64,000 nucleotides of DNA from a phage: sequence record PZ386955.1, one strand, 5' to 3'. Below the pieces are notes generated by a model. The model did no database searches, was not told where the DNA came from, and saw only the letters and a program-made list of their open reading frames with translations. Below are positions 4,766-46,500 of this stretch, piece after piece. Numbering within the stretch: the stretch's first letter is position 1; the number at the start of each line of letters is the position of its first letter. Made by a program: the position numbers and the translations under genes.

Positions 4766-4770
4766 TAAAA

Positions 4771-4797: not shown

Positions 4798-4800
4798 ATC

Positions 4801-5920: not shown

Positions 5921-5936
5921 TATATCTCCTTCAAAG

Positions 5937-5962: not shown

Positions 5963-5980
5963 TCACACAATATTTAACTA

Positions 5981-19098: not shown

Positions 19099-19893
19099 TT
19101 ACGCTTTTGCTCCAAATTTTTTAACCCACTCACCAAACTCTTCGGATAGCAGTTTATCGTAAAGTTCTTCGTCAGACAAGGACAAATCTGCAATACCGAT
19201 AAAATCAACATTATCGTATTCTTTTGCCAAGTCTTTCAGGAATTTAAAGTTTGCATTACCTACACCAACCATAAACCAGTAAACAGGCGTATTGCGGTGT
19301 TTGTTCAGTAAGCTACGTACTGCTGAAGTATCCATGTTCTCCCCGTCAGTTTGGAAGAAAATCATTGCAGGAGTACGATCAACTTGTGCATCAGTATCTA
19401 CAACCTGTTCTACAACAGTACGTGTTACTTCTACAAGTTCTTTTTTACCAGTTAGTTTAGCAAGGAAACCTTTAGCCGGAACTTCTTCATACTCAACGAC
19501 TTCGCGTGTAATATTTTTCATAGGTACACTACCGAAGTATGTATCATAGATCTCTTGCATTACTGGAGCATAAGCAGTACCACCGTTGATGCAAACATTA
19601 GACATGCAAGAGCCGACATAATCATCATACACATCAGCCGTTGCAGGAGGCAGTTCAAAAGAAGAACTATTGAAAGCCCACATGTCAATCTGTGCATTAT
19701 CATCAAACTTCATACCAAACGGCAGCAGTTTACCTACAAAATCGCTAACAGTGCCATCACGATACAGCTCACACATACTACCCGAAATATCTAAGGCGCT
19801 ACCTACACGAAGAACAACATCGTTAATCTTTTTCTTACGCAGGGATACAGTAAGAGTTTCTTGACGTTTTTTAAGACTGATTTTATTGGACAT
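19099..19893 (-). CDS. von Willebrand factor A (vWA) domain protein, TerY-like
   Basis: MIDAS-type DISGSM motif. Confidence 0.5.
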   Translation of the reverse strand: MSNKISLKKRQETLTVSLRKKKINDVVLRVGSALDISGSMCELYRDGTVSDFVGKLLPFGMKFDDNAQIDMWAFNSSSFELPPATADVYDDYVGSCMSNVCINGGTAYAPVMQEIYDTYFGSVPMKNITREVVEYEEVPAKGFLAKLTGKKELVEVTRTVVEQVVDTDAQVDRTPAMIFFQTDGENMDTSAVRSLLNKHRNTPVYWFMVGVGNANFKFLKDLAKEYDNVDFIGIADLSLSDEELYDKLLSEEFGEWVKKFGAKA

Positions 19894-19894
19894 A

Positions 19895-20164
19895 TTATTT
19901 CTCCTTTCTGACTGTAATGTTAGTAACTTCTAAATCCACTTCTACCACTTCTGTATCATATAAAATACAGTTAAGTTGACCTCTTTGTGAACCGTTAAGA
20001 CACATTGCTTGGTTTGTATTAACCTTAATAAACACTAAGTTTCTGAACGTATCTAAACCAGCATCTTGATAGGCAACATAATATACGAATGTATCACCTG
20101 TGTCAAGTTCTCCAAAACATTTAGGTTCATCTGATTTGTCGTCTTTGATATTAAATTTAAGCAC
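19895..20164 (-). CDS. hypothetical protein
   Basis: 89-aa ORF. Confidence 0.45.
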   Translation of the reverse strand: MLKFNIKDDKSDEPKCFGELDTGDTFVYYVAYQDAGLDTFRNLVFIKVNTNQAMCLNGSQRGQLNCILYDTEVVEVDLEVTNITVRKEK

Positions 20165-20720
20165 TGTCTTCTCCTTTACCTGCTCTCAAGCCTAAATAGA
20201 AAGCCTCTCTAGTGATTTTTTGCAACTCGTTTAAAGAGATAGTTACAACTAAATCATCTTCAATTTCTAGCTTTGAGTCTTCTTCTGTCTCAATGCAAGT
20301 ATTATGCACTTTGTGGTAAGGATTGTCAACACGTTTAAATTTATTATTTTCAGTGCTGAAGAAGCAATCTGGATCTTCTTCTCCATCACCCCAACCCTGG
20401 TTAGGGTCTTCTTCAGATCTTTCTGTTGGGATCTCACCTGTAAAGTGTTCTTCTAATACCAGAGCAATCCCATCTCCAAGATCGGAAGAGAACATCAAAT
20501 TACAAACTTCTTCCCAAGGCATAGACCACTTGAATCTTTTACGATTGCCATGTTTATCTTCTTCGTTAGAGAAAACACTACCATAGCTATCATAATTCCC
20601 ATACATCTCTTCGACAACCTTACCACCTTTCAAAAGAAATAGGTAGCAAGGAGAGCCATCGAAAGAGGTAGAAAGAGCAGCATTACCAGACTCTTTGCAC
20701 AAGAAACTAAAACACCCCAT
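20157..20720 (-). CDS. hypothetical acidic protein
   Basis: 187-aa ORF. Confidence 0.45.
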   Translation of the reverse strand: MGCFSFLCKESGNAALSTSFDGSPCYLFLLKGGKVVEEMYGNYDSYGSVFSNEEDKHGNRKRFKWSMPWEEVCNLMFSSDLGDGIALVLEEHFTGEIPTERSEEDPNQGWGDGEEDPDCFFSTENNKFKRVDNPYHKVHNTCIETEEDSKLEIEDDLVVTISLNELQKITREAFYLGLRAGKGEDSA

Positions 20721-20920
20721 TATACACCAGCCTTAAGATCAATTAAAGCCAAAGTTGTTTCAGAGTGTGTTTGCTCGTCTACAGGTGCAGTCATATGATA
20801 ATACAAAAAATCTTCGGCATCATACCAATCTGATTCTTGACCTTGTTTCCAACCATCAATGAAAGCATCTTCCATAATGGTTTGCAATTCTTCACGAGTT
20901 AAGTGAATATCTTTACTCAT
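20720..20920 (-). CDS. hypothetical protein
   Basis: 66-aa ORF. Confidence 0.4.
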   Translation of the reverse strand: MSKDIHLTREELQTIMEDAFIDGWKQGQESDWYDAEDFLYYHMTAPVDEQTHSETTLALIDLKAGV

Positions 20921-21126
20921 TACACATTCTCCTCTTTTACCAATTCCATCGTTGAACTATCAAAACCATCTTTAGAAGAATAGGTATAGACAGAACGTAG
21001 TTCTCGCAGGACAGTGAATACATTGGGATCATCTAACCAAGCATCCTGGAGGAGAACATAACGATCTTCATTGTCGTACTGGACAGCAATCATAGAACCA
21101 GACAGTTTGTAAATTTTAATATTCAT
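20920..21126 (-). CDS. hypothetical protein
   Basis: Start set at ATG 21126 with AAGGAG SD. Confidence 0.4.
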   Translation of the reverse strand: MNIKIYKLSGSMIAVQYDNEDRYVLLQDAWLDDPNVFTVLRELRSVYTYSSKDGFDSSTMELVKEENV

Positions 21127-21139
21127 AATATATTTCTCC

Positions 21140-22243
21140 TTAAAGTAGACCACGTTTAACAGTTTGAATCATACCATCTTCAAGAGATTGCACTTCTTGA
21201 ATGTAATCAATACGCGCAGCACGGGCTTCAGTGTTGATTCGGTTAGTTTCTTCCAACATTTTAACTAAGTTTTCTTGATCGCGACGTAATGTTTCAATAT
21301 CCAATACTTGACGATTAGCAAGTTGTGTAGCTTCAATTTGGTTTTGTGCAGCCAGATCACTACCCATTGCAATAGCAGCATTAAATTCATTCAGCACATT
21401 GTTCTGTGTATCGGCTGCTTTCTTCTGGCGTAGACTTTCAATATACATAGAAAAGTTTGCAGAGTAAGCAGGGATAACATTATTCACAATATTACGGGCT
21501 GATCGCATCAAACTTGCAGATACTTTCTGCATACTTTGTACCCGTGGCCCCATCTGAACACACAGTAAACGCAAGGCTTTCAGGTCTGCAATACGAATTT
21601 CAAGCAGATCCATAGTATCACGAGTACGTTGACGCTCTTCTACTTCATTTTCAGGTAGTGTATTAAGGCGAACTTCTTCTTTTTCATAAGTAGCTGTTAG
21701 AAGCTCTATATCCCTGTTTAAGCTAAGAGCATATTTTGCAATAGCCTCTTCTAAACGTTGCAGATATCGTAAAGAATCTTCTTCTTTTTTCAAGTCTGTT
21801 TGTAGTGTCTTTACCAAACCTTCAATACGGTTATTGATGGTGTCAAATTCTCCAAACAAATCTTCTTTCATACCTAATACTTTCTTAACTAGTTTACCTA
21901 AGCCTTTAGATTGTTTAATAGAGTTAGGATCAAGTTGCTTTGCTTGCTTAATAAGTGCAGTTAAACGTTCACTCATTTCATCCCCCTGAGATGAACGCTG
22001 GTGTTTAAGCACTTCAGCATTAAGGTTACGAAGAGTAAGTCCTGCATCAGCACCAACTTGTTCAATCTCTTCACGAGACATTGGAGGCAGCATTTGTACA
22101 GGTCGTGCAACAGCAGGGGCATATACAGGGCTTGCATCCATAGCACTTGGAGCAAACAAAGACTTACTTTTTTCTGTTGTTGCCGTGAATACACTCATTT
22201 CAGACGGTTTGCTTTTTACGGCACTGATAAAAGGACTGGACAT
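21140..22243 (-). CDS. coiled-coil protein, possibly TelA-like (toxic anion resistance family)
   Basis: 367 aa, helical/coiled-coil composition, size and Ter-gene context; no diagnostic motif confirmed. Confidence 0.35.
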   Translation of the reverse strand: MSSPFISAVKSKPSEMSVFTATTEKSKSLFAPSAMDASPVYAPAVARPVQMLPPMSREEIEQVGADAGLTLRNLNAEVLKHQRSSQGDEMSERLTALIKQAKQLDPNSIKQSKGLGKLVKKVLGMKEDLFGEFDTINNRIEGLVKTLQTDLKKEEDSLRYLQRLEEAIAKYALSLNRDIELLTATYEKEEVRLNTLPENEVEERQRTRDTMDLLEIRIADLKALRLLCVQMGPRVQSMQKVSASLMRSARNIVNNVIPAYSANFSMYIESLRQKKAADTQNNVLNEFNAAIAMGSDLAAQNQIEATQLANRQVLDIETLRRDQENLVKMLEETNRINTEARAARIDYIQEVQSLEDGMIQTVKRGLL

Positions 22244-22311
22244 TCAATTTCCTCCATATTCTTTAGTAGATGGTGATACCTCTGTACCACCATCATAACA
22301 CAAATTAAGTA

Positions 22312-23163
22312 TTAAACAAACATATCTAAATAATTTGTAGTAATAAATGCTCCATCTGCTTCCAGATTAACATAACCAGTAGCATTAGTGGTTAAGAAAT
22401 CCAGATCGAAGGACTCTTTAACACCCCGTACCTCAACACGAGAGATATCGAATACAGGTAGTGTAACAGCCTCTTCGTGCAATACCGTACCTTTGTAGGT
22501 TGCCTTAATGATAAACTTGATATTACCCGTTCCAGCATCATACAAAACACTTTCAAACCCTTTGAGAGTATACTTATCACCAGAAGTGAAGTGCAAAGTT
22601 GCTTTGTTTACAGTACGTTTCTTACGAGGAGTTCCTTTCACACGTTTATGATCACTACGTTTTTTGTATTTAGGAATGAATACAAACGATACATTGTGAA
22701 GAAAGGTATCAACATCAAGGATTTTAATATCCTCTGTTGCAGCAAATTTTGAAGTTGTTGCATCAAAATGCTTTTCCCTGCGATCATACATAAAGATATC
22801 AAACCGATCTTCTAAATCAAACAAATTATGTATTTTAATTTCAGAATGCTTGCGCATTGCAGCAACCTTGAACTCTTCAAAACGTGGGTGTTCTACAAGT
22901 TCTTCAAGTTTTACACCAAAGACAGTATATTGCTTCGGAGTTTTTTCTGGTGTTGGCATTACAGAAGCATAATCCCCGATTGCGCTCTTAAAGCAAAATT
23001 GTTCTTGACCTGTATTTTTACCAACGAATTTACAGTATTCGTCATCGTGCATACTTTCCTGGGTAGTACCAACAAACTCAAAACCATCTTTATTCTTCTC
23101 AAGAATTTCTTGATTAAAGATCCAACCTTCCAGGCGATACACTTTACCAACTTCTAGTTTCAT
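22312..23163 (-). CDS. hypothetical protein
   Basis: 283-aa ORF. Confidence 0.5.
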   Translation of the reverse strand: MKLEVGKVYRLEGWIFNQEILEKNKDGFEFVGTTQESMHDDEYCKFVGKNTGQEQFCFKSAIGDYASVMPTPEKTPKQYTVFGVKLEELVEHPRFEEFKVAAMRKHSEIKIHNLFDLEDRFDIFMYDRREKHFDATTSKFAATEDIKILDVDTFLHNVSFVFIPKYKKRSDHKRVKGTPRKKRTVNKATLHFTSGDKYTLKGFESVLYDAGTGNIKFIIKATYKGTVLHEEAVTLPVFDISRVEVRGVKESFDLDFLTTNATGYVNLEADGAFITTNYLDMFV

Positions 23164-23198
23164 CTGTTTCTCCTTCTTATTTAATCTGTATTAAATTA

Positions 23199-23789
23199 TT
23201 AACGACGACGTGAGCTACTAAAACTACGTTTCGACGAAGAATAACTTTTCGAAGACTTACTATAAGAGCTAATAGGGCTTGAGTAAGACTTACGAGCAGA
23301 GTAATTACTATTCACTTTTGTTGTTGATGGGCGTGAATACGTTTGTACACTTTGCTGCTTAATTGTGTTTTGTTTAGTGGTTGTATATGTATTCCCTTGT
23401 TTATCATAAAAACTATGCTTTTGTGTTGTATATGCTTTACTGTTAGTTATAGGAGCAGCGTTGTTATTAATAATTGTTGTGCTGCTACCACCATCCCTAT
23501 AACCACCACCGCCACTATTACCACTCAACATATGACCAAGAAGCATACCTGTAGCGAACTCACCTACGCCAGAAGAACCACTGCCGCCTCCTTGAACAAC
23601 AACTGTTGAAGGTTGTGCAGGTGCTGCTTGAACAACTTGAGGTGCAGGTTGATTTACATATTGCTCATCTACCATCTGATTTGGTGTTTGTTGGTAACGT
23701 TGATTTTGTACATTTTCAGAATCATCACAACCTACCAGCAATACACTACCTAAAACAACTGCAACAATAAAAGATTTAATGTTTTTCAT
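23199..23789 (-). CDS. putative lipoprotein with Gly-rich and Ser/Tyr/Lys-rich regions
   Basis: Signal peptide ending LLVGC (lipobox-like); start at ATG 23789 with SD. Confidence 0.5.
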   Translation of the reverse strand: MKNIKSFIVAVVLGSVLLVGCDDSENVQNQRYQQTPNQMVDEQYVNQPAPQVVQAAPAQPSTVVVQGGGSGSSGVGEFATGMLLGHMLSGNSGGGGYRDGGSSTTIINNNAAPITNSKAYTTQKHSFYDKQGNTYTTTKQNTIKQQSVQTYSRPSTTKVNSNYSARKSYSSPISSYSKSSKSYSSSKRSFSSSRRR

Positions 23790-23995
23790 TTGTAACCCTC
23801 TCATTTAAAGTCTCAACACAATTTTTAAAATCCCTAGAGAAACAATACATCTGTTCTCCGTTCCTGTTGATAGTAATTGTATGGTTATCAATATATGTTG
23901 TCAAGATAAAAATCAAACAAAACAACCCTAGAGCAAAACAAATATTTTCAAACAGAATCCAAAGAACACGTAAAACCACCATCAGATCACCTCAA

Positions 23996-24018
23996 CAAAG
24001 CCCCCGAAGGGGCTTAAT
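23996..24018 (-). terminator. rho-independent terminator
   Basis: Hairpin AAGCCCCTTCGGGGGCTT followed by TTTGTT on minus strand, downstream of TerC-family gene. Confidence 0.6.
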
Positions 24019-24021
24019 GAA

Positions 24022-24999
24022 TTAAGCAACAGTCTGGTCTTCTTTTTCAGGGAAGATTAAACTTGCAATAACACCCAACCCAAGAGTACCTAACACGATA
24101 TACATACTGATCGTCGGGTCAATGTGTGCTGGCAGGAAACTCATTTTTGCGTGCAGAGTTTCTGCAAACGGATGATACATCAGTTTTACACCCACAAACA
24201 CCAAGACTACGATAACTGCTTTCTCCAGATGAACCAAATACTTCAGTGCAACACTAAGAACAAAGAACAGAGCACGTAAACCTAAGATTGCACAGAGCAT
24301 CGAAGAGAACACCAGCAGAGGTTCTTGTGTCACTGCAATTACTGCTGGAACAGAGTCTACTGCAAAGATTACGTCAACCATTTCCATTACAAACACACAA
24401 ACCAGAGCCGGAGTTGCTACACGAACACCATTTTTGATTGTGAAGAACTTCTCACCATCCATCTGATCAGATACAGGGAACAGCTTACGAACAATGCGAG
24501 TAGCCCAGTGTTTAGAGTAATCAACTTCTGCATCATTATCTCCAGCGAATACCATTTTAGCCGCACAGAAAAGGATGACAGCACCGAAGAAGATATTAAC
24601 ATACCAGCCCAAACTCAACAAGTAAGTGCCTACTGCTACAAACACACCTCGGAAGACAATCGCACCTGCAATACCCCAAAGTAGAATCTTGTGTTGTAAG
24701 TGTGTGCTTTTAATACCAAAACTTGCGAATACTGCCACAAATACTACTAAGTTATCTACAGAAAGAGATTTCTCCAACACATACCCACTCAAGAACAAGC
24801 TCGCAAAATCAGCACCGTGTTGGAAGTATACAAAACCATAGTAGGCTAATGATACTCCAATCCAGAAAATTGACCAGCCAATTGCAGATTTAAATGAAAT
24901 TTCTTTGTTTTCTCTGTGTCCAAAGAAGTCAATACAAATCGACAAGACTAAAATACCCACTAAAACAACCACATCAATAATTGGGAAACCCAGTTGCAT
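24022..24999 (-). CDS. TerC-family integral membrane protein
   Basis: Multi-pass hydrophobic; YVLEKSLSVDNLVVF matches TerC signature. Confidence 0.75.
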   Translation of the reverse strand: MQLGFPIIDVVVLVGILVLSICIDFFGHRENKEISFKSAIGWSIFWIGVSLAYYGFVYFQHGADFASLFLSGYVLEKSLSVDNLVVFVAVFASFGIKSTHLQHKILLWGIAGAIVFRGVFVAVGTYLLSLGWYVNIFFGAVILFCAAKMVFAGDNDAEVDYSKHWATRIVRKLFPVSDQMDGEKFFTIKNGVRVATPALVCVFVMEMVDVIFAVDSVPAVIAVTQEPLLVFSSMLCAILGLRALFFVLSVALKYLVHLEKAVIVVLVFVGVKLMYHPFAETLHAKMSFLPAHIDPTISMYIVLGTLGLGVIASLIFPEKEDQTVA

Positions 25000-25076
25000 T
25001 CTTTTCTCCTCTTTAATGCGGAGGACAATCCTCCGCTCTATGTCTTATACTATAAACTGTTTTTAAAGAAAGTCAA

Positions 25077-25325
25077 CTAGTTCAGTTCTGTAATTTTAAG
25101 TTTATCTTCTTTGTTAATGATAGGGAAAGCTACAGCATCACCTACATCATCAATAAAGCAAATAGCAAGACCACCTTCCACTTTGCTAACCTGACCATTA
25201 AAGGCATGATACGGGGCAGGAACTTCATCTCCATCTTCAATGAGAATAGCCTCGTAAACCTTGCCGATAGTACAATCACGGGTGTTTATAAATTTTTCAA
25301 GCACTTCAACATTTACTTTACGCAT
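25077..25325 (-). CDS. hypothetical protein
   Basis: 82-aa ORF. Confidence 0.45.
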   Translation of the reverse strand: MRKVNVEVLEKFINTRDCTIGKVYEAILIEDGDEVPAPYHAFNGQVSKVEGGLAICFIDDVGDAVAFPIINKEDKLKITELN

Positions 25326-25339
25326 ATAAAGATCCTCTC

Positions 25340-25546
25340 TTATTTGTTAGATTGAAAGATACCACGGAGTACCGCAAGAATGAACGTCACACAGACTACA
25401 CTCCAAAACGTTACAGGAACATGATGCCAGTCTAAGCCGATAATGTCAATCATATAATTGTATGCTAAAAGCAGTAGCCAACTAGGGATTAACACAATCA
25501 AGAACACAACAATAAAACAACCTAATACTGCTAAAACACCTGCCAT
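25340..25546 (-). CDS. small membrane protein
   Basis: 68 aa, two hydrophobic segments. Confidence 0.4.
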   Translation of the reverse strand: MAGVLAVLGCFIVVFLIVLIPSWLLLLAYNYMIDIIGLDWHHVPVTFWSVVCVTFILAVLRGIFQSNK

Positions 25547-25555
25547 ACTTTCTCC

Positions 25556-26272
25556 TTATTTCAGTTTGTAAACAATTACATTTAAACCTTTGTTTACTAG
25601 AGTTTCTTCGATCATAAGTTTTACAATATTCCAAGAACCTCCAGCCAAACCACAACCAAGCATTGGTAAACCTACAATTTTACCGCCTGAAGATACAACA
25701 TCGTCTCCCATACTATCTAGCGCATTGTAGATAGCTTCATAATTCAGGTCACGCTTACCTTCCTCACGACGACTATAACCATATTGTCCATATAAATTAT
25801 AAATTGTCAAATTGTTTTCTGTATATTTGGTAAACGTACCTAATTTTTTATAATCACCACGTTTAGTGGCACAATCTGCTTTAAACGCACCAGGCCACTT
25901 GCTTTTAATTTTTGGTGCAATACCACTACCCATAGTGCAAAAACAGTTACAGCAGTGTGCTATAGCGTCTATATCGCCTCTCTCGGCTGCTGCTAAAAGA
26001 TCACCGTATACCTCAATGATACCTGCTGGATAACTTGTTACAATTTCATCTTCCCAGTACATTTTCTCTACACCACCGATCAGTGCAAAGTTTTGTGTAA
26101 TGCGATCATCAATATAGTTAAGACCTGAAACATACACAGCGTATTCATCCTGTGCTGTAATACCTTGCACACGAATTCTTAAGACACCATCTTTATCTGT
26201 TGCTACACGCCCAAAATCTTTTTCTGTAATATTGGTGATAGGATCTCCGAAAGTCATTACTTTATTAGACAT
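25556..26272 (-). CDS. macro-domain protein (ADP-ribose binding/processing)
   Basis: DIDAIAHCCNCFCTMGSGIAPKI and IVGLPMLGCGLAGGSW resemble macro blocks; start at ATG 26272 with SD. Confidence 0.55.
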   Translation of the reverse strand: MSNKVMTFGDPITNITEKDFGRVATDKDGVLRIRVQGITAQDEYAVYVSGLNYIDDRITQNFALIGGVEKMYWEDEIVTSYPAGIIEVYGDLLAAAERGDIDAIAHCCNCFCTMGSGIAPKIKSKWPGAFKADCATKRGDYKKLGTFTKYTENNLTIYNLYGQYGYSRREEGKRDLNYEAIYNALDSMGDDVVSSGGKIVGLPMLGCGLAGGSWNIVKLMIEETLVNKGLNVIVYKLK

Positions 26273-27122
26273 AATAATCCCCTTTAACATTAGATTTGTT
26301 GATAATGTTGCTTTCAAAAAATTGACGTAGGAAATCAAAGTTCTCTTTGTATTTTTCAATGTTATTGTAACCTTCTGCAAGGCAACCAAAGAACAGTTGT
26401 TCTACATAATACAAAGGAAGTTGTGAAAGTGCAATTTTAAAATCAACTTCGCTTTGACTCATTAGATACTTAATAGGACGAACCAAACATTTAGCATCAG
26501 TTTCTTGCTTAATCATTTTAATAAAAGCTGCCAGATTATTGATATAGTTGAAGTTAAGTGCAGCTTCGGTATTGGCTTCTGTACCTTCATACTTTGCAAA
26601 GTACAGGAAAAACGTATCGTTTTCAACACCTTCTTTGTCTAAAATTTCAATAAGTTTTTCTTCGTGCGTTCCTGTAATATTAACATCATCAATGAAAATC
26701 AGAGTTTTATTACCCCAGAAATCACGATTGATAGAGAAAGTGTCACCATCGATCAAAGCCTTACGATCTTCTTTGCTAAGAAATCCATAATCATTGATAT
26801 AGCTCACTTTACGATGAACGATATCCCACTCCACTGGTTTACCACCTTTGATAGAGATTAGGTAGTTGAGGTGATCTACAAAATGTTCAGATAACACTGT
26901 AGCTGCATTTTTCACATAGTTATATGGAGATGGAATAACAACAAAACTTTCATTTACCAGTCGTTCTTCATACTTAGAAAAGAAACTTTCAGCCAGAATG
27001 CGCCCCATTCTTTTTGCTGCCTGGTTACTACCAAACTTTAGCTTGGAATAATCTGCAATGTTAAATTTTGCTTCCTTCAGGTTAGTAAAAGTATTAGCAA
27101 AATGTTGAATTTGATTACGCAT
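26265..27122 (-). CDS. phosphoribosyltransferase-like protein
   Basis: KTLIFIDDVNITGT resembles type I PRTase PRPP-binding motif. Confidence 0.4.
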   Translation of the reverse strand: MRNQIQHFANTFTNLKEAKFNIADYSKLKFGSNQAAKRMGRILAESFFSKYEERLVNESFVVIPSPYNYVKNAATVLSEHFVDHLNYLISIKGGKPVEWDIVHRKVSYINDYGFLSKEDRKALIDGDTFSINRDFWGNKTLIFIDDVNITGTHEEKLIEILDKEGVENDTFFLYFAKYEGTEANTEAALNFNYINNLAAFIKMIKQETDAKCLVRPIKYLMSQSEVDFKIALSQLPLYYVEQLFFGCLAEGYNNIEKYKENFDFLRQFFESNIINKSNVKGDYYV

Positions 27123-27771
27123 TAATAAGTTCCTCTTTTTTAAGTTTAGCCAACAAGTCTTCTGGATTAATAATATGACAGAACTTCATCCCTATGTCAA
27201 CAGCTTTTCCATCATAAATCAAACTATCTCCAACGTGTAAAATCTCCTCTGGTGCAAGATCAAACGTCACCATTTCATCAAAAGAGAGTTTAAAAAACCT
27301 AGGATCTGGTTTACACAAGCAAAACTCGTCAGAAAAATGCATAAAGTCGAATGGTAATTTTGTTAAACCAGAATATACAGCTAAGAAACTACCTGGTACA
27401 AAATTAGTATTGCTCTTAATACTCAAAGAATAGGTTGAACTTAGCTCTTCCAACTTCTTGCAAAGTTCAGGATTCAATGTTGGAGGATGTTTTATAAACA
27501 TTGCTAAACAGTCTCTTTTTAACCCATCCACTTTATCAAGATCAATGTTCAAACGAGTAGAAAGTGTAACCCAAGCATCCTTAGACGTTCCACAAATGCC
27601 TTTTTCTGCTTTTAAATCCAAGAGGGTTTTTACCTCTTTATATACGGTAGCTGCTTCTACCTCAGAACAAGAGGCATACTCGGCAATGACCTTGTTGCGC
27701 TCTTCTGCATACAAAGGGTTAGCAGTAATAAGAGTATTCCATACATCAAAAGAAATATGCTTAACAGTCAT
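27115..27771 (-). CDS. HAD-superfamily hydrolase
   Basis: FDVWNTLI (motif I-like), CKPDPRFF (motif III), HVGDSLIYDG (motif IV); GGAGGA SD before ATG 27771. Confidence 0.5.
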   Translation of the reverse strand: MTVKHISFDVWNTLITANPLYAEERNKVIAEYASCSEVEAATVYKEVKTLLDLKAEKGICGTSKDAWVTLSTRLNIDLDKVDGLKRDCLAMFIKHPPTLNPELCKKLEELSSTYSLSIKSNTNFVPGSFLAVYSGLTKLPFDFMHFSDEFCLCKPDPRFFKLSFDEMVTFDLAPEEILHVGDSLIYDGKAVDIGMKFCHIINPEDLLAKLKKEELINA

Positions 27772-27940
27772 TTTTAATCCTCCGTCCAAAAGAATATCAT
27801 CTGCTTAATTTTATTGATCTCTTGATGTAGTAACTTTCCAGCATGTGATTGATCTTTAATATTGACAGCAAGAATTTCAAGTTCCGTTAGTTTTTCTTGG
27901 ATAGCTTTATATTCATCATCTGTAAGCATTTTCTTCCCCT

Positions 27941-28144
27941 TTAGAATGGTAATCTTTGTATGTCACTTATACCCACACCAAGAAGTCTAGCAATATCCTT
28001 ATCTAAAAGCAACTCTTTTTGTTCTAAAATGTTAATCAGATCTCCTAATACTTCTTTAATGTCACGATCATTTTTAGCAACGTGACCACCTGCCGTATCA
28101 ACTTTATCTTTAAAAACAAAGTAATGATCCATAATACCCTCCAT
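27941..28144 (-). CDS. hypothetical protein
   Basis: 67-aa ORF. Confidence 0.4.
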   Translation of the reverse strand: MEGIMDHYFVFKDKVDTAGGHVAKNDRDIKEVLGDLINILEQKELLLDKDIARLLGVGISDIQRLPF

Positions 28145-28149
28145 ATAAA

Positions 28150-28175
28150 TAAAGGAGGCTTTCGCCTCCTTTTAT
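28150..28175 (-). terminator. rho-independent terminator
   Basis: Hairpin AAAGGAGGC(TTTC)GCCTCCTTT. Confidence 0.6.
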
Positions 28176-28178
28176 CAC

Positions 28179-29339
28179 TTAGTAAGAACGACCACCAAAC
28201 ACATACTCTGTGTAGTTTTTACGTTCTTTGTTTTTAATAACAACTTCAATGTTGTTGCCTTTATCATCGGTGAACACAAAGTGATAACCGTCACCACCCA
28301 TTGTACGGATGTGTTTTTCATCATACGTCAGCAAGATACGGTCTACACCCCAGTAGTAGTCACCTTCTTCATCTTTATCTTCTACGGTAACGACTCCTTC
28401 CATTTCAGGAAGATGCTCTTCTCCTAGCTTATGGTCTACAGCTACAACATAACGATTACCGCTAAACAAACCCTGTGCTGTCATACCGTCAATATCGGTA
28501 TCTGCCGAAACATCTCCTGTACGGTCTACACCGTTGACTTTCAGAAGTTTAACTTCTTTTGCAGCATAGCGGTGTTCAGTAATACTGATACCCATTAATG
28601 CAAGTGCATCAGAGAATTTGTCATTAGGGTAACGGTTAAGTTCTTCTACTAAGGACTGAACAATATCAAAGTTCAAATCCACGGAAAGATTATAAAGCGT
28701 TTCAAAATCTGGTAAAAAGGCTTTGTTCTCCAGATTTTTAGCCAGATAGTCATCCATAGTAGCTTTAGGTAGTTTCTTATAGCTAAAGCTGTAGAAAATA
28801 CGGCTAGGACGATTACGCAAAAATTCTGATACATAACCATCATTTTTAGTCAATACAAACAGCTTGTCATAGCCACCAACACCATCCAGCAGGGTAAGCA
28901 AACCATCCTGTGCATCTTTTTCAGCATACAGTTTATCAAATTCATCGATCATAATCATCACAGGTTGTGTGATTTTAGACATAAAATTGATAAAGCCTTC
29001 ACCATTAAAAGCACTACCGATAGAAATAGTAGGAATACCCATTTCACGAAGAGCAGAAGACAGCATTTTAGCTTGCAAAGTTTTACCGCTACCCTTCGTA
29101 CCCTCAAGGAGAACACCTGTGTTTTTACCTTTGCGGCTAAGGAACGTCTTGATAATACGTTCTGATTTATCATCAGTATCACCGTATGTTACTGAAGGGA
29201 CTTCCATATCGTTTTTAGGATACAGGAAGAACTCACCACTTTGAGTAACACCTACACCAAAAGTTCCTGCTGGAATTTCTTCGATATCTGTACCAGACTT
29301 CTGACGCAGGAAGATTTGATTGCCGAATACTGTAAACAT
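28179..29339 (-). CDS. AAA+ ATPase, paralogue A
   Basis: Walker A GTKGSGKT, Walker B IMIDEFDK, LLTLLDG; N-terminal 250 aa paralogous to 43581-45191. Confidence 0.6.
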   Translation of the reverse strand: MFTVFGNQIFLRQKSGTDIEEIPAGTFGVGVTQSGEFFLYPKNDMEVPSVTYGDTDDKSERIIKTFLSRKGKNTGVLLEGTKGSGKTLQAKMLSSALREMGIPTISIGSAFNGEGFINFMSKITQPVMIMIDEFDKLYAEKDAQDGLLTLLDGVGGYDKLFVLTKNDGYVSEFLRNRPSRIFYSFSYKKLPKATMDDYLAKNLENKAFLPDFETLYNLSVDLNFDIVQSLVEELNRYPNDKFSDALALMGISITEHRYAAKEVKLLKVNGVDRTGDVSADTDIDGMTAQGLFSGNRYVVAVDHKLGEEHLPEMEGVVTVEDKDEEGDYYWGVDRILLTYDEKHIRTMGGDGYHFVFTDDKGNNIEVVIKNKERKNYTEYVFGGRSY

Positions 29340-29359
29340 AGTTTTCTCCTCTATTTAAT

Positions 29360-29830
29360 TTAGTCAGATTCCCAAATGTTGTCTTTCTTAATCCACATTC
29401 GTTGATTATCTGAACCTCTATAACGTTTCGTTGTTGGTTGATTCATATCATACTTACCATCTATCACTATGTCAACCAGTTTTTTAATTTTTTCTGGAAT
29501 TTCCTCAAAAAGATATCCTGTATATAAGACAATATCTTTTTTGTTTCCAAAACAATCTCTTACCTTCTCAAGAACATACTCTACAGTGTCAATGTTCTCT
29601 TTGTCAAGAGGTTCACCACCTAAAACTGTTAATCCTTTAATGAAAGGTCGAGATAAATCTTTCAAGATAAGACCTAATGTTTCAGTAGTGAACTCTTGTC
29701 CGTAGTTATACGACCAGGCTTTCTGGTTAAAGCAGCCACGGCAACCGTGGCTACAACCGCTCACCCACAAAGAGCATCTTACACCGTCACCGTTGAGCAT
29801 GTCAACAGGTTCATATCCGGCGTAATTCAA
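29360..29830 (-). CDS. nrdG: anaerobic ribonucleotide reductase activating protein (radical SAM)
   Basis: CSHGCRGC cluster near N-terminus; 156 aa; immediately downstream of nrdD. Confidence 0.85.
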   Translation of the reverse strand: MNYAGYEPVDMLNGDGVRCSLWVSGCSHGCRGCFNQKAWSYNYGQEFTTETLGLILKDLSRPFIKGLTVLGGEPLDKENIDTVEYVLEKVRDCFGNKKDIVLYTGYLFEEIPEKIKKLVDIVIDGKYDMNQPTTKRYRGSDNQRMWIKKDNIWESD

Positions 29831-31626
29831 AAATGTTTCTCCCTTTCTAGTACCTCTTGCATTTTACCTTTATTATAAGGGCGAGAGTTAGGGGCAGACA
29901 GGTATCCTGACACTCTTCTGATTACAGATATAGATTCTTCCTCATGATTGCCACAACTTGGACACTCGAAGCCTTTAGCTGTTGCCTTAAATTCACCATG
30001 AAAACCACATTTGAAACACTGATCTACAGGTTGGTTCACGCCAAAATAAGGAATTTTGTTGTAGGCATAATCTACAAGGGTTTCCAGTGCTTGCAAGTTA
30101 TTTTTAAGGTTTGGTGTTTCTACATAACCTATGTTCCCACCATTACTGATTTGTGCAAAACCTTCCTCATAATCCCACTTTTGGAACGGGGTAGTGTGCA
30201 TCCATACAGGTTGATGGAAAGAGTTTGTCAAGTAGTCACGATCAATAGAACCAGGATAGCGATCATTTAATGCTTTGGCAAATTTATAGCACAAGGATTC
30301 TGCTGGTGTTCCATACAAACTAAAAGCTAAACCAGAACGTTCTTTAAATGTGCCACAGATATCCTTCATATATTGAAGGATGTTTTTACCCATTGCTTTT
30401 GGATTGGTGTTACCTGGGTATAAAATCTCCATAGCTTCTGCTAAACCTACATAACCGATACTAATAGAGGCATAACCACCTTCGAATAGTTTACCAATCT
30501 CTTCATTAGCTTCTAGTCGAGCTAAAGCCCCTTCCATAAACAATGTAGGGTTTTGAGATGCTTTGGTATGTCTAATACGGTTAACACGTAGCATATGTGC
30601 CTTATACGCCATCTCCATATGTTGTTCCAACAGTTCAGTAAATAAGATGCCCTTTTCACGGGACTCTGCTGCAATGATAGGTAAGTTTAAAGAAACTACG
30701 CCTAAGTTGAAACGACCATCATATTTTTCACCCTGCTCTGTTGCATAGTATGACAAGAAGCTACGGCAACCCATGCTTGTGACGCGACCATCTGAAGATC
30801 CTGTAACTTCTTTGTTTAAAGGTACAGAGATAAAATCAGGATAAATGCGTTCAGCACAACACTCCATTGCCAGTTGCTTCAAATCATAATTTGGATCGCC
30901 AGCTTTCATGTTAACACCATCTTCCAAGAAGAAGATAACTTTAGGAAACACAGGAGTTACCCTATCTTTTCCCAACCCTTGTTTGTGCACCATTAGGTAG
31001 TTTTTAGTGATCATTCTACCAAAAGCAGAGGTATCCAAACCTAAACTAATTGTTATAAAAGGTGACTGACCATTTACACTCATTAGAGTGTTCACCTGGT
31101 AGATTAAAGTTTGCATTGCATCATAGACCTGTTTATCTACCATACGCATAGCAATATCATAATCGCCAACATCGGCATATATTTTATTAAAACTTGCTTT
31201 AACGTATTGACTAAGCCCAGTATCAACATGTGCACAAGTTTGTCCACCATATTGGCTAGAAGCTACTGCTTGAATAATTTGAGTTAGGACAGTAGTCGCT
31301 ACACCGATAGATTTTGGTTTTTCAATATGTGCATTACCAATACGGAAACCGTTCTCAAGCATATCTTGGTAATTTACCAGGCAACAATTAGTTAAAGGTG
31401 AGAGTAAATAATCTAAATCGTGAATGTGACCATACCCACTTTTATGCCATTCTGCCAGATCTTCCGGTAAAATATGGGTCATTGCCATGTGCTTGCTTAG
31501 GATACCTGCTAGTAAGTCTCGGTGAGTATTAACAATCATTGCAGGTTTGTTTGCATTTTCACGAGTAAATTCTTCGGATGTTTGTTCGAGGAATCCGATT
31601 ACATCCTCATATAGTTTTTGGGTCAT
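29827..31626 (-). CDS. nrdD: anaerobic ribonucleoside-triphosphate reductase
   Basis: C-terminal glycyl-radical motif RRVSGYL and CxxC...CxxC zinc site; start reassigned to ATG 31626 (GGAGGA SD). Confidence 0.9.
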   Translation of the reverse strand: MTQKLYEDVIGFLEQTSEEFTRENANKPAMIVNTHRDLLAGILSKHMAMTHILPEDLAEWHKSGYGHIHDLDYLLSPLTNCCLVNYQDMLENGFRIGNAHIEKPKSIGVATTVLTQIIQAVASSQYGGQTCAHVDTGLSQYVKASFNKIYADVGDYDIAMRMVDKQVYDAMQTLIYQVNTLMSVNGQSPFITISLGLDTSAFGRMITKNYLMVHKQGLGKDRVTPVFPKVIFFLEDGVNMKAGDPNYDLKQLAMECCAERIYPDFISVPLNKEVTGSSDGRVTSMGCRSFLSYYATEQGEKYDGRFNLGVVSLNLPIIAAESREKGILFTELLEQHMEMAYKAHMLRVNRIRHTKASQNPTLFMEGALARLEANEEIGKLFEGGYASISIGYVGLAEAMEILYPGNTNPKAMGKNILQYMKDICGTFKERSGLAFSLYGTPAESLCYKFAKALNDRYPGSIDRDYLTNSFHQPVWMHTTPFQKWDYEEGFAQISNGGNIGYVETPNLKNNLQALETLVDYAYNKIPYFGVNQPVDQCFKCGFHGEFKATAKGFECPSCGNHEEESISVIRRVSGYLSAPNSRPYNKGKMQEVLEREKHF

Positions 31627-31642
31627 TAATCCTCCGTGGAAA

Positions 31643-31670
31643 ATAAAAGCCAGCATTAAGCTGGCTTTAG
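31643..31670 (-). terminator. rho-independent terminator / attenuator upstream of nrdD
   Basis: Hairpin AAAGCCAGC(ATTA)GCTGGCTTT. Confidence 0.5.
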
Positions 31671-42333: not shown

Positions 42334-42672
42334 ATGTTTAGTAAAGAAATGAGAGAAGTAATTGCCACTTTGGTAGTTGATCATGGTGTTGAAGTTGAGC
42401 GTCACGTTTGGAACGATGAACCTCCTTTCTTCGATTTGGCATCACGAGCTAAAAGTCATATGCACCTGCTGGAAGACGGTAATGAGTTTGTTCTCCGTAT
42501 GCGTTATGATCGAGAGTTTCGAATTCCGCTTGACACTGAACCAGATGGTGTAGTAATGTGGTTGGCAGAACATTTCGCATACGATGCACTACATGGAAGA
42601 AGTTTTGGTAATGAGCGTTGGGATGCCATTTGTCGTAAGCATAATATTGAACCAGAGTACGGGAGTATGTAA
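42334..42672 (+). CDS. hypothetical protein
   Basis: AGGAGGG SD. Confidence 0.45.
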   Translation: MFSKEMREVIATLVVDHGVEVERHVWNDEPPFFDLASRAKSHMHLLEDGNEFVLRMRYDREFRIPLDTEPDGVVMWLAEHFAYDALHGRSFGNERWDAICRKHNIEPEYGSM

Positions 42673-42923
42673 TGTTAAGTATCAAACCTAAAATGATAAC
42701 AGAAGACGAAGCAGACTTTATTTTCAAATGTGGACGTGTATGGAGAGAATTCACAAAAGGAAATGAAGTGGTGGTTGTTGTTGAACACAAGATATCTATC
42801 CAGGATCTGTTTGGACAATATATTGATGTTATTAAATTAGGTATTGACAAGGGTTTAGTTGAGGTGTTAACATTAGATCAAGTTGAAGCAGAGCACCTCG
42901 ATAAAGTGGTGGTTGAATTTTAA
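42672..42923 (+). CDS. hypothetical protein
   Basis: GGGAG SD; start overlaps upstream stop. Confidence 0.45.
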   Translation: MLSIKPKMITEDEADFIFKCGRVWREFTKGNEVVVVVEHKISIQDLFGQYIDVIKLGIDKGLVEVLTLDQVEAEHLDKVVVEF

Positions 42924-42943
42924 AATACAGACGGGAGAAAGGT

Positions 42944-43117
42944 ATGAGTTTCTTTGTTACAGTATTTATGGCTATCTGGATTGTAGTCTCACTCGTTCTT
43001 TTCCTGGTGGGTTGTCTGGAAGAGATTAAGAAAGCGGTTATTTGCGGTTTCTTTGGCTTTATTATCTCTCCTGCCTGGATGTGGTTCTTCATTATGATTG
43101 GTTTCCTTAAAAGGTAA
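42944..43117 (+). CDS. small membrane protein
   Basis: 57 aa, two hydrophobic segments, GGGAGAAAGG SD; below ORF-track size cut-off. Confidence 0.35.
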   Translation: MSFFVTVFMAIWIVVSLVLFLVGCLEEIKKAVICGFFGFIISPAWMWFFIMIGFLKR

Positions 43118-43131
43118 GTGAGGAATAAAGA

Positions 43132-43569
43132 ATGAGTAAAACAAACGTAATCGCAGATAAAGCAACGGATGTACTTCTGAACATGGTTAACGTCACTATT
43201 CAAACAATGAGTGATGTTGTAGAGTTTGGAAAACAACAAATTCCAGAAGTAATCCATCAATTATTAGTGTGGAAAGCAGTATCCGCAGGTTTATGGCAAC
43301 TTTTTAGTATTTGCTTTATGTTTATTACTTTTATTGCTGTGCGGAACCTCGTAAAAGCAATTAAAGATAAAGAATGCCTGTGGTCACGAGATCGCTATGG
43401 TGAAGTATCTGCTTTACCTATTGTTGGTCTTGTTGTCTGTGCTTTCTTTTTCTTTTTAGGATTTGTTATTTTCTTTTCGAATTTTGATTGGCTAAAAATC
43501 ATTATTGCACCAAAAGTGTATCTGATTGAATTTGCTGCTGATTTAATTCGTTCATCTCAACAAAAATAA
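43132..43569 (+). CDS. membrane protein
   Basis: 145 aa, multiple hydrophobic segments. Confidence 0.45.
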   Translation: MSKTNVIADKATDVLLNMVNVTIQTMSDVVEFGKQQIPEVIHQLLVWKAVSAGLWQLFSICFMFITFIAVRNLVKAIKDKECLWSRDRYGEVSALPIVGLVVCAFFFFLGFVIFFSNFDWLKIIIAPKVYLIEFAADLIRSSQQK

Positions 43570-43580
43570 AAGGGGTTAAA

Positions 43581-45191
43581 ATGAAATACACGATTTATGG
43601 TGATATTGTAAGTGTAAATAAAGATATGGGCGTGGAATCTAACTATCTTCCACCTGGATTCTATACTGTTAGTCGTGATCCCCTTGGCAATTATTTTTTA
43701 AGCCGTGGTAATCTAACAGGTGTACCGGATGTTCTGTATGGTGAAACAGAAAAACGAGCAAATCACGTTATCCGTACATTCCATCGCCGGAGTGCACAAG
43801 GTAAAAATACAGGCTTGCTTCTGACAGGAACTAAGGGTAGTGGTAAAACTATGTTAGCCAAACTCATTAGTCGTGATCTTGTAGAAGAAGGTATTCCAAC
43901 TATTATGGTTACTCAAGCCTACAGTGATGCTAATTTCATTGAACTTATTAGCAAGATCACCGACAAAGCAGTGATTATTTTTGACGAGTTTGATAAAGTA
44001 TATGAGAAGAAACAAGATCAAGAAGCACTTCTCACTTTGTTAGATGGTACTGGCAGTGGTAATAAACTGTTTATTCTAACTAAAAACAGTGGCTTTATCT
44101 CTGAATTCTTTCTAAATCGTCCTAGTCGTGTGTTTTATAATTTTAATTATGATAAAATCTCACTAGAAACTATGATTGACTATTTAGATAAAAACCTGGA
44201 TAACAAAGCACACTTTGATAATTTCCAAAGACTTTGGGATGTAAGTTTAGAGTTGTCCTTTGATGTGATCCAAGGTATAGTAGAAGAACTTAATTTCTAC
44301 CCTGATTTATCCTTTAAAGAATGCATCTCTATGATGGGCGTTTCTTTGGGTGGTGGTAATAAATGGGATACTACAAGTATTAACAATTTTAAACGTGGTA
44401 GCGGTTGTCCACAATGTAAGAGGGAGAGACAAACAATGTCCGACGATCAACATATTGCAGATTTCTTTTCTACAGGGGAATTTAAGGAAGGCACTATCTT
44501 CACCAATACAGGGAAACGTAACAAGCGTGATGCAGTATGGATGGTTGAGTGTCCTGTTTGCTCCCATGATGAATATGTTCAAGCAGGTGTTTGTGATGGT
44601 AAATTTTACTCTGCAGGACATAACCTTAAACAAGGGTATATTCCGTGTCGTTGTGGGAACTATCAGTATACAGAAGACCAGATCACCTATAGGGTAAAAA
44701 AGGAAGTAGAAGGGAAAGGGTATGTCTGGGTAGATTGGATTACCAAACCCTCTTCTATAGGTAAGTTTAAATATCTTTGTCTTGTGCATGGTGAGCAGAT
44801 AGGGAGTGCTCGTAATTTATTAAGCCTCGGTCAAGGTTGTCCACAGTGTGCTGGTCATAATCAACAGCAATTATATATTAATATTGTTAAAGATAATGAT
44901 ATTATAGTTGCTCTTAAGTTTGGTATATCTAAAGATAGCGATAGACGATTAAACGGTCAAAATAGCCGTAATCTGTTTTTTATGGAGCGTATTTGTTTAT
45001 ATGATTTTAGCACAGTGAAACAATGTAGGGCTGCTGAAAGAGCTATAAAGAAAAAATTAAAAACTGGTATTTTAACGGCAAGAGAGTTGAAAGATGGTTA
45101 TACAGAAACAGTAAGTGTTTCTGATTTGGAAAATCTTCAAAAAATTATTACACAATATGGTGGCAAATTAGTATACAGTAAGGAGATGTAA
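43581..45191 (+). CDS. AAA+ ATPase fused to zinc-ribbon repeats and a C-terminal GIY-YIG/T5orf172-like domain, paralogue B
   Basis: Walker A GTKGSGKT, Walker B IIFDEFDK, LLTLLDG; then GCPQC, CPVCSHDE, CRCG, GCPQCAGH; C-terminus IVALKFGISKDSDRRL. Confidence 0.6.
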   Translation: MKYTIYGDIVSVNKDMGVESNYLPPGFYTVSRDPLGNYFLSRGNLTGVPDVLYGETEKRANHVIRTFHRRSAQGKNTGLLLTGTKGSGKTMLAKLISRDLVEEGIPTIMVTQAYSDANFIELISKITDKAVIIFDEFDKVYEKKQDQEALLTLLDGTGSGNKLFILTKNSGFISEFFLNRPSRVFYNFNYDKISLETMIDYLDKNLDNKAHFDNFQRLWDVSLELSFDVIQGIVEELNFYPDLSFKECISMMGVSLGGGNKWDTTSINNFKRGSGCPQCKRERQTMSDDQHIADFFSTGEFKEGTIFTNTGKRNKRDAVWMVECPVCSHDEYVQAGVCDGKFYSAGHNLKQGYIPCRCGNYQYTEDQITYRVKKEVEGKGYVWVDWITKPSSIGKFKYLCLVHGEQIGSARNLLSLGQGCPQCAGHNQQQLYINIVKDNDIIVALKFGISKDSDRRLNGQNSRNLFFMERICLYDFSTVKQCRAAERAIKKKLKTGILTARELKDGYTETVSVSDLENLQKIITQYGGKLVYSKEM

Positions 45192-45743
45192 ATGCGGATT
45201 ACTGATAAGTATGTGTTCTTCTTCTCGGCAAAAGATGAATTTAGCAACTGGTATCTATCATCTTTTATTGAACCTTTAGCTCCCAAGTATAATAATTCTA
45301 TTACAAGTTCTGTTGAATTTACTTGTGTGGAACAATATATGATGTGGAGAAAAGCATGTTTGTTTTATGATTACAACATTGCATCTTCTATTTTAACCGG
45401 AGATCTAAGATATACAGGAGAAAAAGAACAGGCATATTATAAGCGACTAGGCAGATTAGTTAAAGATTATGATGAAGATACCTGGGCTTCTTTACGGGAG
45501 AAGATTGTCAAGCGTGGTTTGTATCTTAAATACACACAAAATGAAGATCTCAAAAATAAACTTATAGCTTACGCAGATAAGGAGTTTGTAGAGGCAAGTC
45601 CTTATGATTCTATTTATGGTATCAAAATGGGGATGTGGGATCGGGACGTGGAAAATAAGGATTGTTGGAAAGGACAAAATCTTTTAGGAAAATGGCATAC
45701 AGACCTTGCTGTTTATCTAAAATCACAATCTGATATTTCCTGA
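45192..45743 (+). CDS. NADAR-family protein (YbiA-like ADP-ribose N-glycosidase fold)
   Basis: Blocks FFFSAKDEFSNW, FTCVEQYMMWRKACLFYD, EASPYDSIYGIKMG match E. coli YbiA/NADAR blocks; start overlaps stop of upstream ATPase gene. Confidence 0.8.
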   Translation: MRITDKYVFFFSAKDEFSNWYLSSFIEPLAPKYNNSITSSVEFTCVEQYMMWRKACLFYDYNIASSILTGDLRYTGEKEQAYYKRLGRLVKDYDEDTWASLREKIVKRGLYLKYTQNEDLKNKLIAYADKEFVEASPYDSIYGIKMGMWDRDVENKDCWKGQNLLGKWHTDLAVYLKSQSDIS

Positions 45744-45960
45744 TATTTTGAAAATTTTTACTTTTATAAAAAGGGGTGTGGGTTTCATGTACGGAAATCC
45801 ACCCTCTGAATAATATATCCAGAGTAAATATTATTCTGTACTCTGTTAATAAAGTATTTAATTTGTTTGTTGGACTATGGTATCTGATCTTTAAAAGGCA
45901 TACTATCTCTTAACTACTATTTATAACAGAACAGTAAAATCATTTTTATAAAAAGGACAA

Positions 45961-46160
45961 AATTATTTAAAGTTTTTACAGATTTTTGGATACAAATTTT
46001 GAAAATGAAAAGTTCAAGTTTGGTCAAAATTATTTAAAGTTTTTGTACGTATTTCTATCCAGATTTTGAAAATGAAAACTTCAATTTTTTAAAAATTCCC
46101 CAGTTTATTTAAAGTTTTTTTGCCTTTTTCCGTAGAAAAATCAAAAATGAAAAGTTCAAT
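45961..46160. repeat. three tandem ~65-75-bp direct repeats
   Basis: Each unit has ATTATTTAAAGTTTTT then TTTGAAAATGAAAAGTTCAA (internal TTGAA/TTCAA inverted repeat). Confidence 0.7.
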
Positions 46161-46183
46161 TTCGTGTTTTTATAGGTGTGTGT

Positions 46184-46198
46184 ATGATAATCATTCTC
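46184..46198. promoter_or_regulatory. Fur-box-like palindrome within palindromic cluster
   Basis: ATGATAATCATTCTC vs Fur consensus ATGATAATCATTATC; followed by TCATTCTCAGTAAGAGAATGA and GAGAATTTTTCTC palindromes to 46250. Confidence 0.4.
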
Positions 46199-46477
46199 AG
46201 TAAGAGAATGAGAATCGTTAGCAAATGAGAATTTTTCTCATTTAGAGAATAACGCGCAGGGGTGGTGTTTGTCTCGCGCTCCCGTGTCCCCTCGCCATAC
46301 AATAAGAATAGCATAACCAACAACAAAAGCAAGCGATTATTTCTATCTTTACATTTCTTTACAAATTTATTTTAGACGAGCTACCGGCGATCAACCTTCC
46401 AACCAGTAGTGCCCTGGTATGTTAGCCCCGCCTTTACGCCGTGGGGGTGGCGCTTCCTCTTCTGTATGTAAAACAGT

Positions 46478-46500
46478 ATAAGCCCGATCCCTGGGCTTGT
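46478..46500 (-). terminator. possible rho-independent terminator
   Basis: Hairpin AAGCCCAGGGATCGGGCTT downstream of minus-strand ORF. Confidence 0.4.

Follow-up and report, generated by a model that had tools for sequence, protein, structure and literature searches.

Endonucleases of the CapR/T5orf172 class are found in ICP1 and in many other phages, where they are known for Zn-finger repeats, repeat-mediated in-frame deletions and the shuffling of domains (PMC10448857). Here we describe a phage open reading frame (ORF-B) whose C-terminal 273 residues carry CapR repeats and a T5orf172 domain, and in this respect resemble the gp174-type proteins of ICP1 (Barth et al. 2023, PMC10448857). As elsewhere in this class, the number of repeat units varies among sister phages, the gene occupies a fixed slot in some of them and is missing there in others, and genome identity drops across it. 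In the cases described for the class, however, recombination occurred between the endonuclease's own repeats, whereas at this locus one of the two recombining repeats sits in the adjoining ATPase gene, which is a new aspect.

The adjoining gene encodes an ATPase of PHROG 2376, a family that includes gp190 of phi92, gp214 of PHB05, members in GAP32, Atu_ph07 and Salmonella phage 7-11, and an 'AAA superfamily ATPase' of Herelleviridae. When compared with the classic-clade AAA proteins (Cdc48/p97/VAT, NVL/Rix7, spastin/Vps4/Msp1, the ATPase module of FtsH, Bcs1 and bacterial Trip13/Pch2), only the motor of ~200 residues aligns. Unlike these proteins, the phage ATPase is a single AAA module with its own N-terminal beta-domain and its own C-terminal beta-domain of ~120 residues; unlike FtsH and Bcs1, it has no protease domain, HExxH motif, transmembrane segment or Bcs1_N domain. 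BCS1-like AAA+ chaperones have been mentioned in jumbo phages by Iyer et al. (PMC7824862), and our literature search found no paper characterising the PHROG 2376 family.

The window, by which we mean the whole 64,000-nucleotide stretch of phage DNA analysed (PZ386955.1), contains two members of the family: ORF-A (28179..29339, minus strand, 386 aa), which is full-length, and ORF-B (43581..45191, plus strand, 536 aa), whose membership is limited to the first ~300 residues. Alone among PHROG 2376 members, ORF-B lacks the C-domain and carries 273 foreign residues instead. Both regions of the window share 98-99% identity with phi92-like coliphages (Justusliebigvirus, Stephanstirmvirinae), among which phage Antha matches best, at 99.4%. 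A tRNA scan of the window found none.

Two AAA+ ATPases on opposite strands

An earlier note on this DNA had reported two frames on opposite strands that are paralogous over residues ~50-250. Both frames are there, and the paralogy is real and slightly wider, starting at the N-terminus: BLASTP aligned residues 2-253 of ORF-A with residues 3-256 of ORF-B (119/254 identities, or 47%; 70% positives; E 2e-80). With such an E value over 254 residues and a common assignment to PHROG 2376, the similarity extends far beyond generic P-loop motifs. The PHROG 2376 'ATPase' profile matched residues 1-376 of ORF-A on profile positions 2-359 of 363 (E 3.6e-104), and only residues 1-302 of ORF-B on positions 1-304 of 363 (E 1.5e-104), which implies that the C-domain of the family is missing from ORF-B. 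Beyond residue ~256, BLASTP of the two frames gave no alignment, the best extra segment having an E value of 9.7.

Members of the family normally start with a small beta-domain, continue with an AAA+ core that has the second region of homology and with a lid of four helices, and end in a C-terminal beta-domain of ~120 residues. In ORF-A, for which the AlphaFold model has a mean pLDDT of 85.9, these correspond to residues 1-50 (29190-29339), 51-188 (the alpha/beta core), 189-253 and 254-386 (28182-28580), respectively, all on the minus strand. A length of 350-420 residues is shared by 116 of the 120 best homologues, and full-length structural matches were obtained from BFVD in Erwinia, Salmonella, Agrobacterium, Proteus and Lactobacillus phages. 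Furthermore, tblastn identified the family in 380 phage records, Herelleviridae included.

Both ORF-A and ORF-B score above the cut-off for PF00004, and the residues expected of an ATP-driven motor are conserved across 68 homologues. The Walker A motif of ORF-A (GTKGSGKT, residues 80-87; 29079..29102, minus strand) includes the invariant positions G79, K81, G82, G84 and K85 of the family, with T86 nearly so; ORF-B has GTKGSGKT as well. The Walker B motif reads IMIDEFD in ORF-A (28935-28955, minus strand) and IIFDEFD in ORF-B, and D131 and E132 are invariant (68/68). Likewise invariant in 68/68 homologues are the sensor-1 residues T163-x-N165 (LTKN in ORF-A, 28842-28853, minus strand) and the arginine pair R176-P177-x-R179 (within NRPSR, 28800-28814, minus strand); this T-x-N plus R-x-x-R pattern we take, from established knowledge of p97 and FtsH, to be the second region of homology of the classic clade. 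The LLTLLDG helix is also conserved, with L147, D151 and G152 invariant. Position 110 of pore loop 1 is aromatic in 66/68 homologues (Tyr in 35, Phe in 31). The glycine that follows this aromatic residue is present in ORF-A (AFNGEG), and is replaced by Asp or Ser in clade B, the branch to which ORF-B belongs (AYSDAN); since this glycine is not conserved in clade B, substrate threading is uncertain. By these motifs, the motor common to ORF-A and ORF-B can be placed in the AAA+ superfamily, and within it in the classic clade.

A profile search of PDB sequences retrieved Cdc48/p97/VAT, Rix7, AFG2 and PEX1 at 1e-8 to 1e-5, with alignments confined to the core; the N- and C-terminal beta-domains matched no solved structure. 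Several GenBank records label members of the family as 'FtsH-like protease' or 'Zn metalloprotease', labels that we reject: there is no Peptidase_M41 hit, no HExxH motif and no transmembrane segment, the maximum 19-residue hydropathy being ~1.0 in ORF-A, ORF-B and the intact ATPase-B of sister phages. Orthology to BCS1 was rejected as well, as the AAA domain alone matches and the Bcs1-specific N-domain and membrane anchor are absent, and no named NCBIfam or PADLOC family came near its cut-off for the ATPase. The ATPase pair belongs to a known and annotated phage family, and the pair of paralogues is in itself ordinary.

Divergence between ORF-A and intact ATPase-B is unevenly distributed, with identities of 26% in the N-domain, 56% in the alpha/beta core, 45% in the lid and 16% in the C-domain. 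A conserved motor flanked by strongly diverged terminal domains is the pattern that would fit two copies with different partners. In a neighbour-joining tree, clades A and B form neighbouring branches from phages of ~150 kb, apart from a clade of jumbo phages. Both copies occur in Justusliebigvirus and in the Klebsiella relative phi1_175008, and Phapecoctavirus is shown with clade B only. ORF-A and ATPase-B thus stem from a genuine, ancient duplication of the AAA+ motor.

Origin of ORF-B

In sister phages, the plus-strand locus consists of two separate genes, ATPase-B followed by a CapR/T5orf172 endonuclease. The PHB05 locus (L001) encodes a 375-residue ATPase (2582-3709) and, after a gap of 74 bp, a 390-residue endonuclease (3784-4956); the same two-gene layout is found in Antha, ALITA and phAPEC8, with endonucleases of 329, 468 and 394 residues, respectively. 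BLASTN matched window positions 42500-44370 to 1501-3371 of the PHB05 locus at 99.3% identity, and window positions 44353-46500 to 4118-6316 at 96.3%. These two matches overlap by 18 bp, the sequence GTGGTAATAAATGGGATA, which is present twice in PHB05, at 3354-3371 within the ATPase and at 4118-4135 within the endonuclease, and once in the window, at 44353..44370 on the plus strand. Missing from the window are the 764 bp between the PHB05 repeat copies. As ATPase-B and the endonuclease lie in different reading frames, a deletion of 764 bp joins them into a single frame.

The protein sequences resolve the junction to the same point. Residues 1-263 of ORF-B are identical to PHB05 gp214 (263/263) and residues 259-536 are nearly so to residues 113-390 of the PHB05 endonuclease gp215 (276/278), the shared peptide GNKWD (residues 259-263, encoded by the lone repeat copy) being common to both parents. 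The ATPase-B-derived part (43581..44370, plus strand) comprises the N-terminal beta-domain, the AAA+ core and the lid, and breaks off within the opening strand of the C-domain that was lost; the endonuclease-derived part occupies 44371..45191 on the same strand. Each parent lost 112 residues: ATPase-B its entire C-domain, and the endonuclease its start together with one CapR unit and, from the unit that follows, the CHC ligands. An 18-bp repeat is longer than any word shared between the two genes in 2000 codon shuffles (maximum 16), and KWDISS is native to clade-B ATPases. The repeat may have arisen through chance resemblance of GNKWD motifs or as a conversion patch.

We also examined the endonuclease-derived half by domain searches. 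CapR (PF21817) matched the C-terminal half of ORF-B in two stretches (E 1.4e-18), T5orf172 (PF10544) scored 18.9 bits, just below the 20-bit cut-off, and residues 258-535 matched phrog_681 ('endonuclease') at E 8.5e-62. In the parental PHB05 endonuclease, CapR matched in three stretches (E 3e-43) and T5orf172 scored 20.9 bits. The remaining part in ORF-B comprises half a CapR unit without CHC ligands, further CapR Zn-finger units and a T5orf172 domain with its KFGIS core at residue 446. Judged by these domains it belongs to the CapR/T5orf172 homing-endonuclease class, homing being predicted. Homologues of the endonuclease are 325 to 477 residues long and differ in the number of CapR units (two in Antha, three in PHB05, four in ALITA). 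The gene is free-standing at a fixed slot in PHB05, Antha, ALITA and phAPEC8, and is absent from Klebsiella phage phi1_175008; in the window it is not free-standing, since the region upstream of it and the opening 112 codons are gone.

Identity to the left and right of the junction was 99.3% and 96.3% against PHB05, and 99.5% and 93.1% against Antha. This step at the endonuclease gene (window 42500-44370 versus 44371-46500) is a mosaic boundary typical of the nuclease class. Further downstream, in the intergenic region 3' of the NADAR-domain gene, an AT-rich unit of 67 bp occurs twice in tandem (82% match; window 45958-46088), and related copies in PHB05 give rise to extra BLAST pieces.

Distribution of the fusion

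The junction was not found as one contiguous match in any of 56 related phage records, each match breaking at the repeat. A junction-specific 26-mer had no match in IMG/VR or among JGI metagenome contigs, with IMG/VR a weak control that holds few such phages: the native right-hand context of the repeat was present in only two of its contigs, and the native left-hand context in none. None of 153 billion gene positions on record has exactly the ORF-B protein. When 5.8 billion proteins were searched for homologues with ORF-B as query, the best matches were two separate proteins, an endonuclease of 390 residues with 97% identity at 52% coverage and an ATPase of 375 residues with 99% identity at 50% coverage. 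No hit covers more than 59% of ORF-B or is longer than 477 residues. Conversely, tblastn with intact ATPase-B identified 55 phage records at 99% identity or more, and in a spread sample 6/6 cover the query end-to-end. As no other record has the junction and the parents are intact elsewhere, the database evidence indicates that the chimera is a private, recent and genome-specific allele.

Gene neighbourhoods

As the earlier note had it, ORF-A lies between nrdG and the genes for a HAD hydrolase, a PRTase_3 protein and a Macro-domain protein. Upstream of ORF-A are nrdG (29360-29830) and, beyond it, nrdD (29827-31656), both on the minus strand. Compared with positions 27000-31000 of the window, phi92 (FR775895, 115970-120249) and several 'Campylobacter' records have ~279 extra bp; in these records nrdD is annotated in two parts (gp192/gp192A), while that of the window is one uninterrupted frame of 609 residues. 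The records in question, MG065639, MG065656 and MG065645, are deposited as 'Campylobacter phage' A150, C3 and A145 (hits H10, H11 and H15, respectively); being 98.7% identical to phi92-like coliphages over the region, they bear a host label that looks doubtful.

Leftward, ORF-A heads a minus-strand block comprising first a 67-residue ORF and then genes for the HAD hydrolase (27115-27789), a ComF-like PRTase_3 protein (26265-27122), the Macro-domain protein (25556-26389), TerC (24022-24999), TelA (21140-22243) and a vWA-TerF-like protein (19099-19893). This block matches the parts list of phage-borne Ter systems (PMC7824862), such that window positions 19099-27789 on the minus strand constitute a fairly complete phage-borne Ter-type module.

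On the plus strand, ORF-B was said to be fused to Zn ribbons and coupled to NADAR. The Zn-binding CapR units are there, and a NADAR-domain gene directly abuts ORF-B on its 3' side (45192-45743, plus strand); a coupling of NADAR to the ATPase does not follow. In related phages NADAR comes after the endonuclease gene and not after the ATPase, phi1_175008 lacks both endonuclease and NADAR at this locus, and two extra genes intervene in phAPEC8. The apparent coupling is therefore one of adjacency to the endonuclease slot.

Extending the comparison to the whole family, we surveyed the neighbours of 80 diverse IMG/VR loci together with four earlier loci, clustering ORFs de novo and dereplicating the ATPases at 70% identity (n=33 groups). 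Family-wide linkage to nrdDG, Ter or NADAR was rejected, being confined to close relatives, and a TerC/TerD neighbourhood in Aeromonas phage BUCT695, which had looked promising, did not generalise. The commonest true neighbour is a Macro-like protein, present in 9/33 ATPase groups, always on the same strand and within 3.9 kb; in the closest cases it overlaps the ATPase by 13 or 31 bp, or lies 122 or 252 bp away. It was never found at 4-10 kb from the ATPase, though ~10 kb were available in most loci. NAMPT (PF04095 with PF18127) occurs in 5/33 groups, 78-93 bp upstream of the ATPase in three of them. The arrangement Macro-NAMPT-ATPase or Macro-ATPase was observed in diverse environmental phages, at IMG/VR loci L027, L030, L032, L034, L040, L042, L057, L061, L080 and others. 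Together, the Macro, NAMPT and NADAR neighbours suggest a recurring NAD/ADP-ribose theme, to which inherited synteny in a few lineages may contribute. In jumbo Xanthomonas phage XbC2 (L007, 1-1181), genes for a NadR-like protein (CTP_transf_like with AAA_28) and a PnuC-like protein (NMN_transporter) lie ~7 kb upstream of the ATPase homologue; NadR-like proteins and PnuC are parts of NARP3 (PMC13464706).

Discussion

The observations above are very probably explained by an evolutionary history in which the window carries two ancient paralogues, one of which, ORF-B, became a chimera through a repeat-mediated deletion. In the parent state, a gene for a 375-residue ATPase-B would have been separated by a spacer of 74 bp from that of a free-standing CapR/T5orf172 homing endonuclease. 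Through recombination or slippage across the two 18-bp direct repeats, 764 bp would then have been lost, and with them the final 112 codons of ATPase-B, the spacer and the opening 112 codons of the endonuclease, so that the two frames were joined. How the proteins work is a more tentative matter, for which we propose only a possible scheme. Members of PHROG 2376 may be ATP-driven, ring-forming remodelling machines, although the models available are of monomers, and the fast-evolving N- and C-terminal beta-domains, which matched no known fold, may choose the target or partner. If these domains do choose the target, the two paralogues could serve different targets, and the recurrent Macro, NAMPT and NADAR neighbours suggest a possible connection to NAD/ADP-ribose metabolism. 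Copy B in the window would have kept its motor and lost its specificity domain, while the endonuclease would have lost its start, half a Zn finger and a whole DNA-binding unit. In view of these losses on both sides, the chimera is most likely an allele in which both parents have lost their function and which the phage tolerates, and not a new machine.

The earlier note had proposed one shared engine with two effector modules, in which ORF-B would couple a Zn-ribbon half to NADAR and ORF-A would act through an unrelated C-domain. The duplicated AAA+ motor of that proposal stands; there is indeed no relationship between the C-terminal halves of the window's two proteins, ORF-B is uninterrupted with its motor motifs and T5orf172 core intact, and the NADAR gene follows directly 3'. 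The second effector, however, is the 3' 273 codons of the neighbouring endonuclease gene: the Zn-ribbon half is identical at 276 of 278 positions to the free-standing homing endonuclease of sister phages, the fusion is seen nowhere else and bears the signature of a repeat-mediated deletion, and the linkage of NADAR to the ATPase is not conserved, which together make two effector modules highly improbable. One might instead regard the fusion itself as a functional novelty, either a nuclease that is driven by ATP or oligomeric or an AAA+ protein that binds DNA, which the phage would now direct, for example, against satellites or co-infecting phages. Shuffling of DNA-binding modules and co-option are both known for T5orf172 endonucleases, examples being CapR and Odn of the ICP1/PLE system (PMC10448857, PMC8096241), and would accord with this idea, as would a junction that is in frame (one chance in three), intact motor motifs and the retention of two CapR stretches and the nuclease core. 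Yet the fusion occurs once, has not diverged from its parents since the event (263/263 and 276/278 identities), begins its nuclease part with half a Zn finger devoid of CHC ligands, and has no comparable architecture among 5.8 billion proteins, so that we consider a new function improbable. It is also hardly likely that the deletion is an assembly or consensus artefact, or belongs to a defective minority sub-population and not to the biological genome. No other genome has the deletion, and deletions between short repeats also arise in library preparation or PCR; but an 18-bp repeat is shorter than the k-mers and reads that usually cause collapse. Moreover, both flanks are clean and collinear with relatives, and in-frame deletions between repeats are documented for this endonuclease class (PMC10448857).

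A related question concerns the C-domains that the two paralogues had before the deletion, which the claim of unrelated C-terminal halves, correct by BLASTP for the two window sequences, would have as independently acquired modules. BLASTP of the ORF-A C-terminus against that of intact ATPase-B indeed gave no similarity, identity in the aligned C-region is as low as 16%, and hhalign returned a probability of 24% with the strict A-clade profile (24-86% across comparisons). On the other hand, the family alignment contains patterns common to both C-domains, and hhalign gave P 8e-4 with clade A strict and P 4.7e-6 when the bridging P0041 subclade, intermediate between both clades, was included, over 95-103 columns and thus nearly the whole domain; reversed-sequence controls gave P ~0.5. 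The AlphaFold models of ORF-A and of intact ATPase-B (P0079; pLDDT 85.7) have the same four-part architecture, with C-domains alike in length and in the order of strands and helices. Furthermore, PHROG 2376 covers ORF-A up to profile position 359 of 363, and structural matches across many phages are full-length. An independent acquisition of unrelated C-domains therefore appears quite unlikely. From the shared alignment patterns, the profile P values and the matching order of elements in the models, the two C-domains are probably divergent homologues, with profile statistics that are moderate.

With regard to function, the same-strand recurrence of Macro, NAMPT and, for paralogue B, NADAR raises the idea that PHROG 2376 is an accessory of phage NAD+/ADP-ribose counter-defence, remodelling or disassembling a host immune complex that consumes NAD or ADP-ribosylates. 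We regard this role as unlikely on present evidence; under it, the paralogues could be specialised via their divergent N- and C-terminal beta-domains. A newborn functional chimera is a weaker possibility still.

Returning to the preferred account of a deletion between paralogue B and its neighbour, what appears as a motor with a new effector is a deletion scar at a homing-endonuclease slot, and domain fusions that are found in a single genome beside mobile nuclease genes should be compared with sister genomes. The locus provides a natural case, resolved to the base, in which a homing-endonuclease gene would have been decapitated and fused to its neighbour via 18 bp of microhomology. It also implies that ATPase-B can do without its C-domain, at least as far as the propagation of this isolate is concerned. 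Finally, these findings draw attention to a phage AAA+ family that is large and conserved and has neighbours suggestive of NAD/ADP-ribose biology, a field of active study in phage-host conflict.
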